Source: a virus. From it: DNA of 64,000 bases. The stretch covers positions 4,740-68,739 of the IMG/VR virus record IMGVR_UViG_3300002542_000006; one strand, written 5' to 3'. The notes beneath the pieces are model-generated. The model made no database searches, was not told the DNA's origin, and was given only the letters and a program-made list of their open reading frames with translations. A program made the translations under genes and the position numbers. This document shows, in pieces, positions 3,712 to 11,977 of the stretch (position 1 is the first letter of the stretch; every line of letters starts with the position of its first letter).

Positions 3712-4410
3712 TTAGTCCTTTATGTTATACTGTATTCGATCCATTGCTCTACCAATTTGATTTTCAATTCTCATAAGTTTATATTTAGCCTTAATATCTC
3801 CTCTGGCCTCAGCATCCTTGATTTTTTCTTGCACAACCCTCAATTCAAATTTCAGGTCGTTAAAAATAAGATTCTTATATTTTGCATCAGTTCTTTTATC
3901 AATAGCAGTTTGAACTAAAATTGCTAATATAGTAGAAATAATTTTTACAGGAATTCCCCCAGGAATAAGAAGTCCTATAATAAAAGACCTTATAAGATTC
4001 TTGAGCATTCTTGAAAGATCTATGGTTCTTTTAACCACAGTATCATAGGTTGCATTTCTTTTACTTTCTCTATGAAGTTTAATAAATCTATTGAATTTCT
4101 CATTTAACCTTTCGGCCATTTGTTTTTCAGCAAGAGTAAATTTGACAAGAGTTTTCGATACTTTATCTTTAGCCTTTCTAAATGTCTGAGCTATATTTTC
4201 ATTTAATTGCGCCTCATCAATTTCTTCAATAATAATAGATTCTTGAATAGTTTCTATAAGAGAATCGATCAAGGCTTCCAGTTTTAAATCTTGATCAATC
4301 CCATCATCTTTATTTTCCAGCGTATCTTCAAAATTCAATTCATTTATTGATTCAAGTATTTTCATCTTGTGCTCGGATATAAACTTACTATTGTAAAAGC
4401 TTGTATCCAT
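3712..4410 (-). CDS. Probable internal head protein
   Basis: 232 aa; late-type promoter at 4443-4454; several [LI]xE-S sites; hydrophobic segment followed by basic helices. Confidence 0.5.
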   Translation of the reverse strand: MDTSFYNSKFISEHKMKILESINELNFEDTLENKDDGIDQDLKLEALIDSLIETIQESIIIEEIDEAQLNENIAQTFRKAKDKVSKTLVKFTLAEKQMAERLNEKFNRFIKLHRESKRNATYDTVVKRTIDLSRMLKNLIRSFIIGLLIPGGIPVKIISTILAILVQTAIDKRTDAKYKNLIFNDLKFELRVVQEKIKDAEARGDIKAKYKLMRIENQIGRAMDRIQYNIKD

Positions 4411-4529: not shown

Positions 4530-5414
4530 ATGATGAAAAATATGTTTACCACCAAAACAAAAAAAGAGTTTCCTATCTACTATATAGTAGAAGCAGCAAT
4601 CAACCCAGACGACATAAAGACTGAGATTATAAGAGAAAATGTAGTAGATACGGCAGATGGGAAGAAAGTGAAGACTGTTACTGCCGAATCTGTTCTTCAA
4701 AGCTTCGAAAGAATTAATTGGAATGGTCGTAGTTATCCTGGAAATATTGTTATGAGAAGTCTTAATGAAGACCCGAAAATTCAAAACGATATTCGTATGA
4801 GACAATGGGCAGGGGAATGGTGCCATCCGGACAGCACAAGCCCCGTTCGTCAATCTCAAGTTCTTGATCCTTTCGTGTCTCATTATATTGATAAGTATTG
4901 GCAGGATGGAAACCTTCTTAAGGCACATGTAACCACGGCACCTTTTGGCTACGGTTTGGATATGTATAACAAACTTATGGCAGGTCGTCCATGGGGCTTC
5001 TCTCTCCGGGCATTTGGGGCTACTGATTCAAACAATGTAGCTATTTGGCCTCTTAGAATTATCACCTATGACCAGGTAAACAGACCTTCACATAAAGAGG
5101 CATATTCTACAAGACAAAACGTCATTTCTAAAAACGAATACACTGATGATTTCTTACAGGAATGTTCGGTTATGTATCCCGTAGATCAATCTACTCTACA
5201 AAAAGAAATTACAAACTTCGTTCTTGAAAAATCCGATAATGTAAAGATCGCTAAAGAATTGTTTGGTCTCCAAGAATCTCAAGGAGAGTTTAATGATAAA
5301 GGCCAAGTAATGCTTGAAGGATCTTATCTTGGTACTACTATTAGAGTATATCTTCCAGTGGAGTCATATATTCGAGAAAATTATATGAATATGCTCCGCA
5401 GTCTTAAGCAATAA
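4530..5414 (+). CDS. Prohead core protease (T4 gp21/phiKZ gp175 family)
   Basis: GEWCHP (cf. GELGHP) and WGFSLRAFG (cf. GVSSRG) catalytic His/Ser motifs; late promoter 4490-4501; start refined to the ATG after SD GAAAGGA. Confidence 0.85.
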   Translation: MMKNMFTTKTKKEFPIYYIVEAAINPDDIKTEIIRENVVDTADGKKVKTVTAESVLQSFERINWNGRSYPGNIVMRSLNEDPKIQNDIRMRQWAGEWCHPDSTSPVRQSQVLDPFVSHYIDKYWQDGNLLKAHVTTAPFGYGLDMYNKLMAGRPWGFSLRAFGATDSNNVAIWPLRIITYDQVNRPSHKEAYSTRQNVISKNEYTDDFLQECSVMYPVDQSTLQKEITNFVLEKSDNVKIAKELFGLQESQGEFNDKGQVMLEGSYLGTTIRVYLPVESYIRENYMNMLRSLKQ

Positions 5415-5443
5415 TATTGAAATATAGTTCTCTTTGAGGAGGG

Positions 5444-6166
5444 TTGTTAATGAATATCAATACAATACTGGATATACTCCTCAACCAAAGGCTTGGTCTT
5501 GTTGAATATAAATTGGATTATTTATATCCAGAGATTCATAAAAATCTTCTTACTAACACATTACCTATCTTCTCACAATACTTTCCATATTATAGAAGAT
5601 ATTTATTCAATCCCAGTGAAAATAAGTCAGACGTCGAAAATGAATATTATCTGAATATACCGGAGGTCCAAGCAAATAAATTACATGTTATTTCAGTAGC
5701 AGATGTGAGGGCTAAATCCGGGGTTGAAGGTAATGCATTTATGGATAGCTATAGACCATTTGCAATGACGATAGAGGACGTTCTTATTAACTCTGCGTCT
5801 ACAAATATTGCATCCTTGACTAACTATAGTTACAGAATGTTTAGATTTATACCTCCTAATAAAATACGTCTAAAAGGTTTTGGAGAATATGAGGTATATA
5901 TCACATTAAAATTGACATACCCATCATTCTCATCTATACCAGAATCTATAATAGAGCAATTCCTCGACTTGGCGGAATGTGATATAAAAATCTTCATATA
6001 TAATAAGCTGAAACATTATGATCAGCTTAGTATGCCTATGGGTAATATGGATCTCAAACTTGGAATATTCGAGAATGGCGAATCCGAACGTAGAGATCTT
6101 ATAGAGAAATTCAATACGAGAGGATTTGCAAATAAGGCTCGAAGATTCTATCATCGTTACGAGTAA
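5444..6166 (+). CDS. Hypothetical virion protein (head completion/neck candidate)
   Basis: 240-aa ORF with SD GAGGAGG, co-oriented with the protease; function inferred from position only. Confidence 0.45.
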   Translation: MLMNINTILDILLNQRLGLVEYKLDYLYPEIHKNLLTNTLPIFSQYFPYYRRYLFNPSENKSDVENEYYLNIPEVQANKLHVISVADVRAKSGVEGNAFMDSYRPFAMTIEDVLINSASTNIASLTNYSYRMFRFIPPNKIRLKGFGEYEVYITLKLTYPSFSSIPESIIEQFLDLAECDIKIFIYNKLKHYDQLSMPMGNMDLKLGIFENGESERRDLIEKFNTRGFANKARRFYHRYE

Positions 6167-8452: not shown

Positions 8453-9157
8453 TTAAACCAATGCTTCGATAAGGCGGTCGTTCTTGATCGTTTGTTTGAA
8501 TTCTTTGCTGGGAACAAATCCGACTTCCCACTTGTCCTTCTTACGCTCAATCGTATAAGTTCCCTCTCCGGGAACTTCATACTTCACAACTTCATCCGCC
8601 GACTTGCTGTTTGCAAGTACGTGAATGATGGCTGCAATGTGAAGCGCAATGAACAGTTGAGCCGACGTCTCATCCAGTTCTACGCCACGGTCCGCCTCTG
8701 TTTTCTTTTCAACCCATTCGCCTTCCTGGACATCATATTCATCCAGTTTGCAGCAATGGATGACCGTATCCAGCAGAAGCTTGCTGTCGATAGAAGAAGC
8801 AATGGATTCAATCAGCGACACATTGTTGTACAGCTTATCTTCGAAGCTGTCCAGTTCGCTCAAGAACTTCTTCTCGTTCGTGAGACTGAACGTCGGATTC
8901 AGCGACAGAGACTCGCCGGACTTCCGTGCGACGACTCCATAAGTAAACGGGCCGATAACCAGCTGTACTTCTTCCCTGGGCTCCTGATCCATCATCAGGT
9001 ACAGCGTGCGCGGGATTGCATTCGAAATCCCCGTATCAATAATCGCCTGAAGTGCAAGGTCGATTTCTGCCTTTTTCGTTTCGCCGTTGATGTTGCGTTC
9101 GCAGTGAAACGCTTTCGAAGATACAGAATTTGTTACCTCGATAAGTTTCTTTGCCAT
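8453..9157 (-). CDS. Highly expressed early hypothetical protein (234 aa)
   Basis: ATG at 9157 after SD AGGAGGAG; early promoter and 5' stem-loop upstream; codon bias as in capsid gene. Confidence 0.75.
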   Translation of the reverse strand: MAKKLIEVTNSVSSKAFHCERNINGETKKAEIDLALQAIIDTGISNAIPRTLYLMMDQEPREEVQLVIGPFTYGVVARKSGESLSLNPTFSLTNEKKFLSELDSFEDKLYNNVSLIESIASSIDSKLLLDTVIHCCKLDEYDVQEGEWVEKKTEADRGVELDETSAQLFIALHIAAIIHVLANSKSADEVVKYEVPGEGTYTIERKKDKWEVGFVPSKEFKQTIKNDRLIEALV

Positions 9158-9232
9158 TCTAAAACTCCTCCTATTAATGAAGTTTTTATTGTAAAGACAC
9201 ACTTAGTATAAACTAATAATGTGTCTTTCACA

Positions 9233-9250
9233 CAATAATAATATATATTT
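9233..9250 (-). promoter_or_regulatory. Early-type promoter motif TATATATTAT (representative; other copies at 9336, 12005, 14636, 19111, 20365, 27562, 28203, 30943, 45885, 49294, 50703, 62864)
   Basis: 13 intergenic copies found by eye, all on the minus strand upstream of minus-strand genes; resembles the phiKZ early TATATTAC core. Confidence 0.8.
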
Positions 9251-9403
9251 GACAATTACGACGACTACAAATAGCTTATAGAAAAAATGCTACTGCATAT
9301 TACCACCTCTCGCTCGATAATATTGTTTATTAGTCAATACAATAATATATATTTGTCTTTAGTTTGCTTCAATAACTATAATTTTGAAAAATAAATATAA
9401 GTA

Positions 9404-9433
9404 GCCAGAGGGTATCATTTATAACCCTCTGGC
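9404..9433 (-). terminator. Intrinsic terminator downstream of the structured RNA
   Basis: 10-bp stem GCCAGAGGGT/ACCCTCTGGC followed by a T-rich tail on the minus strand. Confidence 0.75.
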
Positions 9434-9448
9434 CATGATATATATTAA

Positions 9449-9733
9449 GGACATGACTGCGAGATGAGCCTGATCATCAAACCCAAATTTATTTTCGCCT
9501 ACCATTCCTGAAAACCTCTTTCTGAGAGCACAGCAAAATCCTCTTCACTCTCTGCGACGGTTAATCCAATGCGATAGGATTAACCCAGACAGAAAAATCC
9601 GAGGAAATATCGCCGATTACCCCTAATATGATAGTGGGATAATTTGTGACCTCAGTTTTTCAAAGAGGCCGAGGAATGGACTCGACGATTTCATTAATTC
9701 TTGCATAATACGACTCTCTCGCAAATCATTCCC
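9449..9733 (-). ncRNA. Uncharacterised structured non-coding RNA (~285 nt)
   Basis: No convincing ORF; AACA-N6-TG promoter places +1 at 9733; 5' end pairs with 3' end (about 17 bp with bulges); further long-range helices, hairpins and a pseudoknot; G-U wobbles favour the minus strand. Confidence 0.75.
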
Positions 9734-9778
9734 AATATATTGTTCATAAATTTCCAATATTTTGCTTTTGACCCAAAG

Positions 9779-11977
9779 TCAAGAGTATTGACTGATAAAC
9801 TCTGATAGTAGCATCACAGGGATGCCTTTTTTCCTTGCAATTAATGCTTTCTTACCATCGAGTCTATCAGGAGTCACTACAAGCAAATCATATTTACTTC
9901 CTGTTTCAATAATCTTAAAATTTAATGCTTTGCATATTTTTTCAAACTCAGGATTATTCCTAAATCCTGACACCAATATTACTTTATCATAATCCTTTTT
10001 AGTATCAACACAATTTAGCAGATTCTTCAATTCGACAAATTCTTCATAGGCGTTAATAAGACCTTTGGAGAAATCTTTGGCCTTCTTATCAATACCTTTT
10101 ACCGTCTTCAATTTTTTATAGAGAACATTTTCATCTTTGGATGACATCAACTGCTCTAATTCTTTTATAGAAATTTTATCGAGAATTTTTTCAGCAGTCT
10201 TCGTCCGAAGACCCGGTATTCTCAAAAGATCTATAACTTTTGGATATTCGATAGGTGCCTTTATTTTATTTTGAAACTCATTCCAGGCTTTTTCCAAGTT
10301 TAGACCTTTGAGAACTTTAGAAAGATCTTTATATCCCATTTTTATAAACTCGATTGCATTGGATATGCCTACAATTTCCACCAAGTCATTCGCGATTTCT
10401 TCCCCAAAGAAATCGAGATTCAGAATCCGTATTGCTTCCAGGATTCTTCCTACTTTATGACCAGGACAATCTTCATTGATACATTTTAACATATCTTTAG
10501 TTACAATAAGCTCAAAATTACATTTTATGCAATGTGTTGGAAGCATAAGAGGTTCTCCATTCTTAGCCGGTTTACATGTATCATCTTTATAGATGTATCC
10601 CATAACGTCTGCATTGTAGGATACAATAACTTCATCCCCAATATGAGGATTAAGTTCTTTAAATCTTGTAATATTGTTAACCGGAGCTTTCTCATATCGA
10701 ACACCATTAAATTCAATTGGCTCGAATGTTATATTAACTCCGATAAACCCCTGCTTCCCCATAGATGGAAGTATCCCAGTGATTTTCGTTCTCTGCATCA
10801 TTGCATCGAATTTATAGGCAATTTGCCACTTGTTCTTATTACTGGATCTTCCAAGTTCATTCTTTAAAGTATGGTTAACTATACTTATAACCAATCCATC
10901 TATACTATATGGAATCTGAGATCTTTTAGATGAATATTCCTGTACTGTTTTCTCTATCTCAGAAAGAAGTTCATCAATATTTCCATACAAATAAGTATAT
11001 TCATATGGGAATTTTTCAGAACTATCAAAAAATACACAGGAGTTTCTCATTCTAATAAAGATATTTTCAAATGTTGCATCGCGATTTTTATCTAGTTTCC
11101 CATACAGATCTATAATTCTATCATCTGTAAGTAGCGGAACTAAAGTTACACACTTGTTAATCTCTATTAATTCATCTTTAGGCGTTTTCGGATTAGAGAT
11201 ACGTTTTAGGGCTGATGCAATTGCCGCCCGTCTTGTAGAGTAATTAATATTCACAATTTCACTGAGTCTTTTTCTTCCATACTCAGTCACAATTGCTTCA
11301 TATTGAATTCCCACAGTTTTAGGAAGTAATACAGTGTCAATCCAACGTATAGGATTTCTTCCAATCAAAATATTGGAGAGATCTACACCCTTATTTTCTT
11401 CAAAATTACCCCTGGTTACTGCCTTTACAGGGGTCAAAATATTTTCATTATTTCTAAACGTTATAGTTACGGATGTACCGTCGAACTTAGGGGCTATAAT
11501 AATCCCAAGTTTCTTTCTAGAAGTTTCTTTCATTATTTTTCTTAACCATTTTTCCACAGAGGGCTTATCGCTAACATTATAAACAGTATAAGCCTTATCC
11601 AAAGTACCAGCAAGTTCAGGGAAATCCTGCTCAGTACTTCTCATACCAGCTGGGATGAATGATTGAAACGGCTCTTTCCCATCATTGAGATTTTTATATA
11701 TCTCAATAAGCCTATCATACATATCATCCGGCATCAATCTATACAGAATTCCACTCATGTACTGATTTAGCTCATAAAGCGACTTAGATACTTTCAAGAT
11801 ATTCTCTAAGCCCTTTAATTCATCCACGGTTATAGATTCATCGGGTTTGAAAACTATTTCATGTAGAGTCAGCACGATCTCAGGATCTTGTAATCCTACA
11901 GCCGCTGAAGCATACTGTCCATTATCAATGTAGTTTAGTAGTCGTCCTGTTATCTTACTGAATTTAGCCATCCTCAT
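9779..11977 (-). CDS. ligA: NAD-dependent DNA ligase
   Basis: KFDG adenylation motif, DGLVI, WQIAYKF, C4 zinc finger CIKC..C..C, HhH region and C-terminal BRCT-like domain. Confidence 0.93.
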   Translation of the reverse strand: MRMAKFSKITGRLLNYIDNGQYASAAVGLQDPEIVLTLHEIVFKPDESITVDELKGLENILKVSKSLYELNQYMSGILYRLMPDDMYDRLIEIYKNLNDGKEPFQSFIPAGMRSTEQDFPELAGTLDKAYTVYNVSDKPSVEKWLRKIMKETSRKKLGIIIAPKFDGTSVTITFRNNENILTPVKAVTRGNFEENKGVDLSNILIGRNPIRWIDTVLLPKTVGIQYEAIVTEYGRKRLSEIVNINYSTRRAAIASALKRISNPKTPKDELIEINKCVTLVPLLTDDRIIDLYGKLDKNRDATFENIFIRMRNSCVFFDSSEKFPYEYTYLYGNIDELLSEIEKTVQEYSSKRSQIPYSIDGLVISIVNHTLKNELGRSSNKNKWQIAYKFDAMMQRTKITGILPSMGKQGFIGVNITFEPIEFNGVRYEKAPVNNITRFKELNPHIGDEVIVSYNADVMGYIYKDDTCKPAKNGEPLMLPTHCIKCNFELIVTKDMLKCINEDCPGHKVGRILEAIRILNLDFFGEEIANDLVEIVGISNAIEFIKMGYKDLSKVLKGLNLEKAWNEFQNKIKAPIEYPKVIDLLRIPGLRTKTAEKILDKISIKELEQLMSSKDENVLYKKLKTVKGIDKKAKDFSKGLINAYEEFVELKNLLNCVDTKKDYDKVILVSGFRNNPEFEKICKALNFKIIETGSKYDLLVVTPDRLDGKKALIARKKGIPVMLLSEFISQYS

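Follow-up and report, generated by a model that had tools for sequence, protein, structure and literature searches.

Evidence for a new family of late-type structured RNA genes in an uncultured lineage of AR9-related jumbo phages

AR9- and phiKZ-type jumbo phages transcribe their genes with two unusual RNA polymerases of their own, and in a 2026 review of jumbo-phage biology non-coding RNAs are mentioned only in passing, with almost nothing recorded. Several described RNAs share features with the RNA reported here. 6S RNA (RF00013 and related models) is likewise a stand-alone, highly structured RNA with paired ends and a less stable AU-rich middle, and both have a plausible link to RNA polymerase, which in the present case comes from the gene neighbourhood. 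Yet 6S RNA is ~150–200 nt long, whereas the present RNA is ~285 nt, phage-encoded and preceded by an AR9-type late promoter. GOLLD (RF01998) and ROOL (RF03087) are also orphan phage-carried structured RNAs with their own promoters and no assigned function, but they are longer (450–800 nt), occur in bacterial islands as well and are frequently present in several copies; the present RNA is single-copy, restricted to one phage lineage and without a match to either model. The phi29 pRNA (RF00044) is a phage RNA that combines a 5'/3' helix with a three-way junction as seen here, but it belongs to another phage type, its model gives no match, and its ring-forming loop-loop pairing is not conserved in the present RNA. 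Finally, adenovirus VA RNA I is likewise virus-encoded, with its two ends joined in a terminal stem, several helices in its central domain and a stem at the apex. It differs in being a ~160-nt Pol III transcript of a eukaryotic virus with no sequence or model similarity, so that the likeness is one of form and not of ancestry. VA RNA I and similar viral RNAs are thought to act through protein binding rather than base pairing.

The window, which is the whole 64,000-nt stretch of DNA analysed here, is part of a 78.8-kb IMG/VR contig with an estimated completeness of 37%. The RNA gene lies on the minus strand in a 575-bp gap between an NAD-dependent DNA-ligase-like gene and the next open reading frame (Table 1), directly 3' of the ligase gene and inside a gene cluster for recombinase, RNA polymerase subunits and ligase. 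The neighbouring genes encode a UvsX/RecA-like recombinase, the C-terminal half of an RNA polymerase beta subunit (Rpb2_6), the ligase, a 234–249-aa protein of no assigned function and a 640-aa protein whose PHROG family is annotated "polymerase". The nearest cultured phages by ligase (25–27% identity) are the Bacillus phages BpSp, AR9 and PBS1, the Staphylococcus S6-like phages and Yersinia phiR1-37. In AR9, compared with the window, the gene for the C-terminal half of the non-virion RNA polymerase (nvRNAP) beta subunit is found a few genes upstream of the ligase, and the noncoding gap 3' of the ligase is absent. The lineage is one of uncultured jumbo phages distantly related to AR9 and PBS1.

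A reading of the DNA made from the sequence alone (the sequence-only reading) had described a structured RNA of ~285 nt on the minus strand, and all the helices it proposed were found in place. The folding energy of the RNA body is −109.3 kcal/mol against −75 ± 4.8 kcal/mol for dinucleotide shuffles (z = −7.16), which is beyond chance. The opposite strand reaches −78.5 kcal/mol against −111.3 kcal/mol for the minus strand, and each full-length member, of which there are four, has 11–15 G-U pairs in the consensus structure; the asymmetry and the G-U pairs together argue for structure at the RNA level and on the minus strand. No conserved open reading frame was found among the homologues. The overall shape is that of a 22-bp clamp joining both ends, an irregular rod of ~45 bp and an apical three-way junction. 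The clamp strands pair with each other, the second helix is formed by CCAUUCCU (9679–9672) with AGGAAUGG and by GGCCUCUUU (9670–9662) with AAAGAGGUU, and both apical hairpins, AUUAUCCC/GGGGUAAU and GGUUAAUCC/GGAUUAACC, could be identified. Folded singly, the five close members all give one architecture, which runs from the ~22-bp 5'/3' helix through an invariant GAGUC/GACUC helix, an AU-rich weak zone and a second long helix, which bears the conserved six-base bulge (GAAAAN), to the three-way junction, an apex of ~130 nt with one short hairpin and one long arm.

Table 1. Coordinates of the RNA gene, its parts, the flanking elements and the corresponding loci in related contigs (strand as given for the window).
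Feature	Sequence	Position	Strand	Remarks
Structured RNA body	window	9449–9733	(−)	~285 nt; rod with apical three-way junction; from z-score, covariance model (CM) matches and covariation
AR9-type late promoter AACA-ATATAT-TG (AACAATATATTG)	window	9733–9744	(−)	matches the published consensus; predicted +1 is the G at 9733
P1, clamp 5' strand	window	9712–9733	(−)	pairs with 9449–9471
P1, clamp 3' strand	window	9449–9471	(−)	pairs with 9712–9733
AU-rich weak zone, 5' side ("bubble" of the sequence-only reading)	window	9688–9711	(−)	mean P(unpaired) 0.42; short helices partly covary
AU-rich weak zone, 3' side	window	9471–9495	(−)	mean P(unpaired) 0.44; least conserved region of the RNA, 34% identity
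Six-base bulge GAAAAA	window	9656–9661	(−)	GAAAAN in all seven members; opposite 3' strand unbroken
Hairpin P5, first junction arm	window	9616–9643	(−)	helix 10
Long second junction arm	window	9531–9614	(−)	apical hairpin 9559–9585; several of the best-conserved sequence blocks
GC-rich hairpin, 10 bp	window	9404–9433	(−)	15 nt past the rod; probable terminator or 3' end-protecting hairpin
AR9-type early promoter AAATATATATTAT-(6N)-G of the next gene	window	9335–9354	(−)	exact published consensus; outside the RNA, marks the end of the unit
NAD-dependent DNA-ligase-like gene	window	9779–11977	(−)	5' border of the 575-bp gap
Gene 3' of the RNA	window	8453–9202	(−)	conserved ~234-aa family (234–249 aa)
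Gene of the 234-aa family	L002	6729–7436
Tandem paralogue pair of the 234-aa family	L007	5712–6428, 6542–7246
Inverted repeat, 16 nt	window	9325–9340 / 9785–9800		15 of 16 positions complementary
Duplicated early-promoter region	window	9214–9251, 9318–9355		two 38-nt copies, 76% identical, 104 nt apart
Near-consensus AR9-type early promoter	window	9435–9454	(+)	linker past the RNA
Homologue found by sequence	L002	6173–6474
Homologue found by sequence	L005	5450–5742
Homologue found by sequence	L006	~3911–4212
Homologue found by sequence	L127	~3748–4045
Positional counterpart	L009	5212–5493		group B
Positional counterpart	L013	5180–5465		group B
Positional counterpart	L010	5230–5567		group B
Positional counterpart	L130	3626–3930		group B
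Positional counterpart	L008	5204–5479		group C
Positional counterpart	L154	~5237–5500		group C
Extra small ORF between ligase gene and noncoding unit	L012	5189–5473		94 aa, two CxxC pairs
Extra small ORF between ligase gene and noncoding unit	L154	4713–5237

Conservation within the RNA is block-wise; it is the GAGUC/GACUC helix and short invariant motifs of the apex, not the bubble, that are conserved best. The clamp is free to vary in sequence (39% identity), and its outer part (helices 1–2) shows two-sided changes in 15 of 16 pairs. Its five innermost pairs form the GAGUC/GACUC helix, which is 76% identical and almost unchanged among four members. The motif UGAAAA..CU is invariant in six of six aligned sequences and is present in L014 too. 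At the junction, helix 10 (P5) has two-sided changes in four of its eight pairs with 95% of the cells paired, and helices 11–14 of the second arm are 86–100% paired. The second arm consists, in order, of GGCGA/UUGCU, CCUC/GAGG, a conserved 4 × 4 internal loop GGAU/UGAA, UUUUCUGU/GCAGAGAG and the apical hairpin.

Two elements of the proposed structure did not hold up. What had been read as a 17/15-nt AU-rich bubble is indeed an AU-rich and weakly paired zone, with a mean unpaired probability of 0.35–0.57 against 0.31–0.40 for the whole RNA, but it is not a clean open bubble, as it holds two short helices that partly covary. A pseudoknot had also been proposed between UAUCGC in an apical loop and GCGAUA, and this complementarity exists in the window. 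The other members show either no match or only shifted 4–5-nt AU matches, so there is no consistent counterpart among the homologues, and four of the six partner bases lie in the GGCGA helix, where the pseudoknot would compete with the conserved GGCGA/UUGCU pairing. It was rejected as a feature of the family and is regarded as particular to the window.

Related contigs were reached via the ligase protein, and each one that extends past the ligase gene has an ORF-free stretch of ~270–375 nt there. Six homologues of the RNA were found, each directly 3' of the NAD-ligase gene in contigs of uncultured jumbo phages, and they share the fold with compensatory changes in its base pairs. Four were recognised by sequence (Table 1). 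L007 was matched by a single-sequence covariance model (E = 2e-10) and by a core covariance model of 196 positions (E = 2e-21), and L014, whose membership rests on E = 0.001–0.004, was matched by the core model exactly in the expected gap. The family has seven known distinct members, these last two being the distant ones, and it is present as a single copy in one complete 246.9-kb genome. Pattern scans of viral, metagenome and genome collections gave only identical copies of known members and chance matches; the 16 pattern matches in cellular genomes all failed the covariance model. No match was found by blastn among the INPHARED phages or with the covariance model in AR9, BpSp and phiKZ. As far as public data show, the family appears confined to one uncultured lineage of AR9-related jumbo phages.

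The alignment fitted by the covariance model, with six sequences, gives the best covariation figures and leans towards the structure: 93.4% of the cells are paired against ~45% with slid partners, 84% of the changed cells still pair against 18–25%, and two-sided changes are seen in 60 of 101 pairs (89 cells). These values were reached by no shuffle. Because of this bias, we also used blind tests, in which the window's own minimum free energy structure was projected onto structure-blind MAFFT alignments. For the core, with six sequences, 85% of the cells are paired against 40–48% with slid partners, and 69% of the changed cells pair, with 51 double-change cells. At full length, with five sequences, the corresponding values are 73% against 39–48% and 51%, with 52 double-change cells; they are lower since the clamp helix, at its low identity, cannot be aligned by sequence. 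At the level of sequence comparison, these figures show that the fold is maintained by compensatory substitutions.

A late-type promoter AACA-ATATAT-TG with its +1 at the first G of the terminal helix had been proposed, and it is found exactly there, equal to the AR9 late consensus AACA-(6N)-TA/G, in which the last base is the start site (PMC5312081). Among 14 related loci, L014 alone has no clear late motif bordering the noncoding unit on its 5' side; the other 13 have one. Across the window, where intergenic DNA makes up 9.4% of the bases, 17 of 59 late-type motifs are intergenic, a ~3-fold enrichment, as are 13 of the 14 early-type motifs of the AR9 consensus AAATATATATTAT-(6N)-G (PMC5312081). 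Many of these intergenic early and late motifs lie 12–150 nt ahead of genes on the same strand.

The terminator that had been proposed past the RNA turned out to be a more complicated case. Its hairpin is present, and one is seen 3' of the clamp 3' strand at the equivalent place in every homologue, but in the window the tight U run is missing and a terminator scan did not call it. L005, L006 and L127 have a clear U run following the hairpin; that of L002 and the window is interrupted or not tight, which could let some transcripts of the latter two continue into the downstream gene. In L005 a strong terminator directly past the ligase gene is followed by a spacer of ~190 nt up to the RNA promoter, which shows that the RNA is not simply a 3' UTR. 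The late promoter with its +1 on the first G and the hairpin in every homologue point to a gene of a new RNA family that is transcribed late and independently, and the RNA is predicted to be a late transcription unit of its own with its own promoter and 3' hairpin. On the plus strand, the linker past the RNA also holds a sequence that agrees with the AR9 early promoter at 10 of 13 positions, followed by 6N and G, and that is directed antisense into the RNA gene. This site is not conserved in L002, and the AR9 virion RNA polymerase (vRNAP) has been reported to be intolerant of mismatches; the site is therefore probably inactive.

The more distant relatives, with ligases 43–52% identical, have AACA-N6-TR, a noncoding stretch of 275–345 nt, a hairpin, an early promoter and a gene of the 234-aa family at the equivalent locus (positional counterparts in Table 1). 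The four group B sequences are alike among themselves, and their own alignment gives only a weak consensus fold. The two of group C appear alike, judged by inspecting the sequences. One distant group has GUGAAKAGUG-hairpin-CUGAAGA in common. The distant counterparts have z-scores between −0.3 and −4.8. By covariance model, neither the group B nor the group C RNAs are detectably homologous to the family, and the complete genomes of the distant group hold no family copy elsewhere. These units are therefore treated as positional counterparts of unproven homology, and they may be fast-evolving counterparts of the RNA. Late units of similar length but unrecognisable sequence suggest a fast-evolving RNA gene in which position, and perhaps shape, is kept more than sequence. 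In L012 and L154 an extra small ORF lies between the ligase gene and the noncoding unit (Table 1).

Known RNA families were searched with Rfam 15 (4227 models). At the gathering threshold only two tRNAs elsewhere in the window pass and none in the RNA region, and at E ≤ 10 a 700-nt region of the window and the six homologous loci gave no relevant match, those obtained in the region being short, at chance level and far below threshold. The absence of tRNA and tmRNA signatures had been pointed out from the sequence, and neither ARAGORN nor Rfam found any in the region. For Y RNA and YrlA (Ro60-associated) there was no Rfam match, and no TROVE domain was found in the window's record or in the complete related genome. 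A retron, DRT or group II template RNA was looked for through RVT_1, without a match in G000, G001 (complete) and G002, and no phage RNase III was found in the related genomes searched. With no family matched and homologues that share the fold, what the sequence-only reading had offered as a fallback, a new RNA class, agrees best with the data in the form of an undescribed family.

The main suggestion of that reading was a 6S-like RNA, in which the melted middle of the rod mimics an open promoter and sequesters either the host sigma-A holoenzyme or a phage multisubunit RNA polymerase. In overall shape the RNA, a long irregular duplex whose AU-rich middle pairs weakly, resembles 6S RNA, and the ~30 bp on one side of the weak zone and ~35 bp on the other are close to 6S dimensions; the gene also sits between RNA polymerase beta-subunit-like genes in a phage lineage that uses its own polymerases. 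However, no Rfam 6S model matched the window or the six homologues at E ≤ 10, and the weak zone, partly paired and partly covarying, shows on its 3' strand the lowest conservation of the whole RNA. In place of the simple hairpin of 6S RNA the apex forms a large three-way junction, the total length exceeds that of 6S RNAs by ~100 nt, and a late transcript would be poorly timed for host shut-off. Nor do any of the five close members contain YA-N6-UGUU, the template-strand late-promoter motif read by the AR9 non-virion RNA polymerase. The promoter-mimic claim is not supported, and we regard the 6S-like reading as an analogy of overall shape and as distinctly unlikely.

Other readings keep the structure and change its role. 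The late promoter and the RNA could form a long cis-acting 5' leader with an attenuator hairpin for late expression of the 234-aa gene, as AR9 genes expressed throughout infection bear both promoter types (PMC5312081), the order of ligase, RNA, early promoter and 234-aa gene is constant in every locus reaching that far, and the poor U run in the window and L002 makes read-through plausible. Possible read-through keeps this reading alive, but it is unlikely, given the good U-run terminators past the RNA in L005, L006 and L127, the ~800 nt and another small ORF between the RNA and the 234-aa gene in L005, the lack of a conserved antiterminator pairing (one candidate spotted by eye in the window is missing from L002) and a 22-bp clamp unsuited to switching. 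An aptamer or a ribozyme core, built from the three-way junction, the invariant bulge and the internal loop, would account for the clustering of invariant unpaired nucleotides round a multi-helix junction, which is typical of ribozymes and aptamers; no Rfam ribozyme or riboswitch family matched, however, an expression platform is absent and no hammerhead-type core was found on inspection, which makes a catalytic or ligand-binding RNA very unlikely. The late promoter and the junction with a 5'/3' helix, a combination that phi29 pRNA has as well, would also suit an RNA that is built into or used by the assembling particle. Against this, neither the pRNA family nor any other gave a match in the window and the six homologous loci, loop complementarity of the kind that forms the pRNA ring is seen in the window only, and the present phages are myovirus-type jumbo phages, which to our knowledge package DNA without an RNA component; a virion or packaging RNA is highly improbable. 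Hardly credible, and already disfavoured, is a DNA-level element (an origin, a packaging site or a protein-binding palindrome) or a chance structure, even though promoter-like repeats and the 16-nt inverted repeat flank the region, which is itself AT-rich: the G-U pairs of the full-length members would be A-C mismatches on the other strand, the energy is strand-asymmetric, RNA pairs are preserved through compensatory changes, the unit has its own promoter and probable terminator, and the flanking repeat is absent in L002.

We are highly confident that the locus is a genuine RNA gene, that its product is structured and transcribed on its own, and that it represents a new family in one uncultured lineage of AR9-related jumbo phages. 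On balance, the best explanation is a gene that stands alone and encodes a stable structured non-coding RNA of an undescribed family, probably made late and acting in trans by binding protein. The phage's own non-virion RNA polymerase would make the RNA late in infection, the clamp would protect its ends, and the RNA might then serve in trans as a protein-binding scaffold or decoy. Likely contacts would be the GAGUC/GACUC helix, the GAAAAN bulge and the GGAU/UGAA loop with the GUGAAGAG and UUGCUG blocks, as the invariant motifs look like binding sites. A protein-binding RNA is the most likely reading in a generic sense, drawn from invariant unpaired motifs, and RNA polymerase is only one candidate partner. 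There is a slim chance that the RNA binds and regulates one of the sigma-less multisubunit RNA polymerases encoded by the phage itself, for example as a late-made lock that would keep the virion polymerase inactive through assembly and packaging and be released on the next infection. If true, RNA control of a jumbo-phage RNA polymerase would be without precedent, and a 6S-like principle would have evolved independently of sigma factors. Being compact and strongly structured, with clear boundaries, a defined promoter class and one locus across the phage lineage, the RNA is a concrete object for asking about RNA roles in giant-phage infection.

The protein encoded 3' of the RNA was also considered as its partner and rejected, as it has no recognisable fold and no Pfam or PHROG family. 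Its AF2 model is confident (pLDDT 87), yet no informative fold match was obtained in PDB or BFVD. The family occurs as tandem paralogue pairs in several relatives, such as L007, and the true start of the window's gene is suggested to be the ATG at residue 16 of the listed ORF.

A few further observations concern the surroundings of the RNA gene. The 16-nt inverted repeat brackets the RNA gene together with its hairpin and the first early promoter, with one arm within the last codons of the ligase gene, and it may be due to chance or be the trace of a local rearrangement. The early-promoter region of the downstream gene is duplicated (Table 1). Finally, the promoter grammar of the whole window is that of AR9, with the exact early consensus and late AACA-(6N)-TR, and the DNA of this uncultured phage might thus contain deoxyuridine as well.
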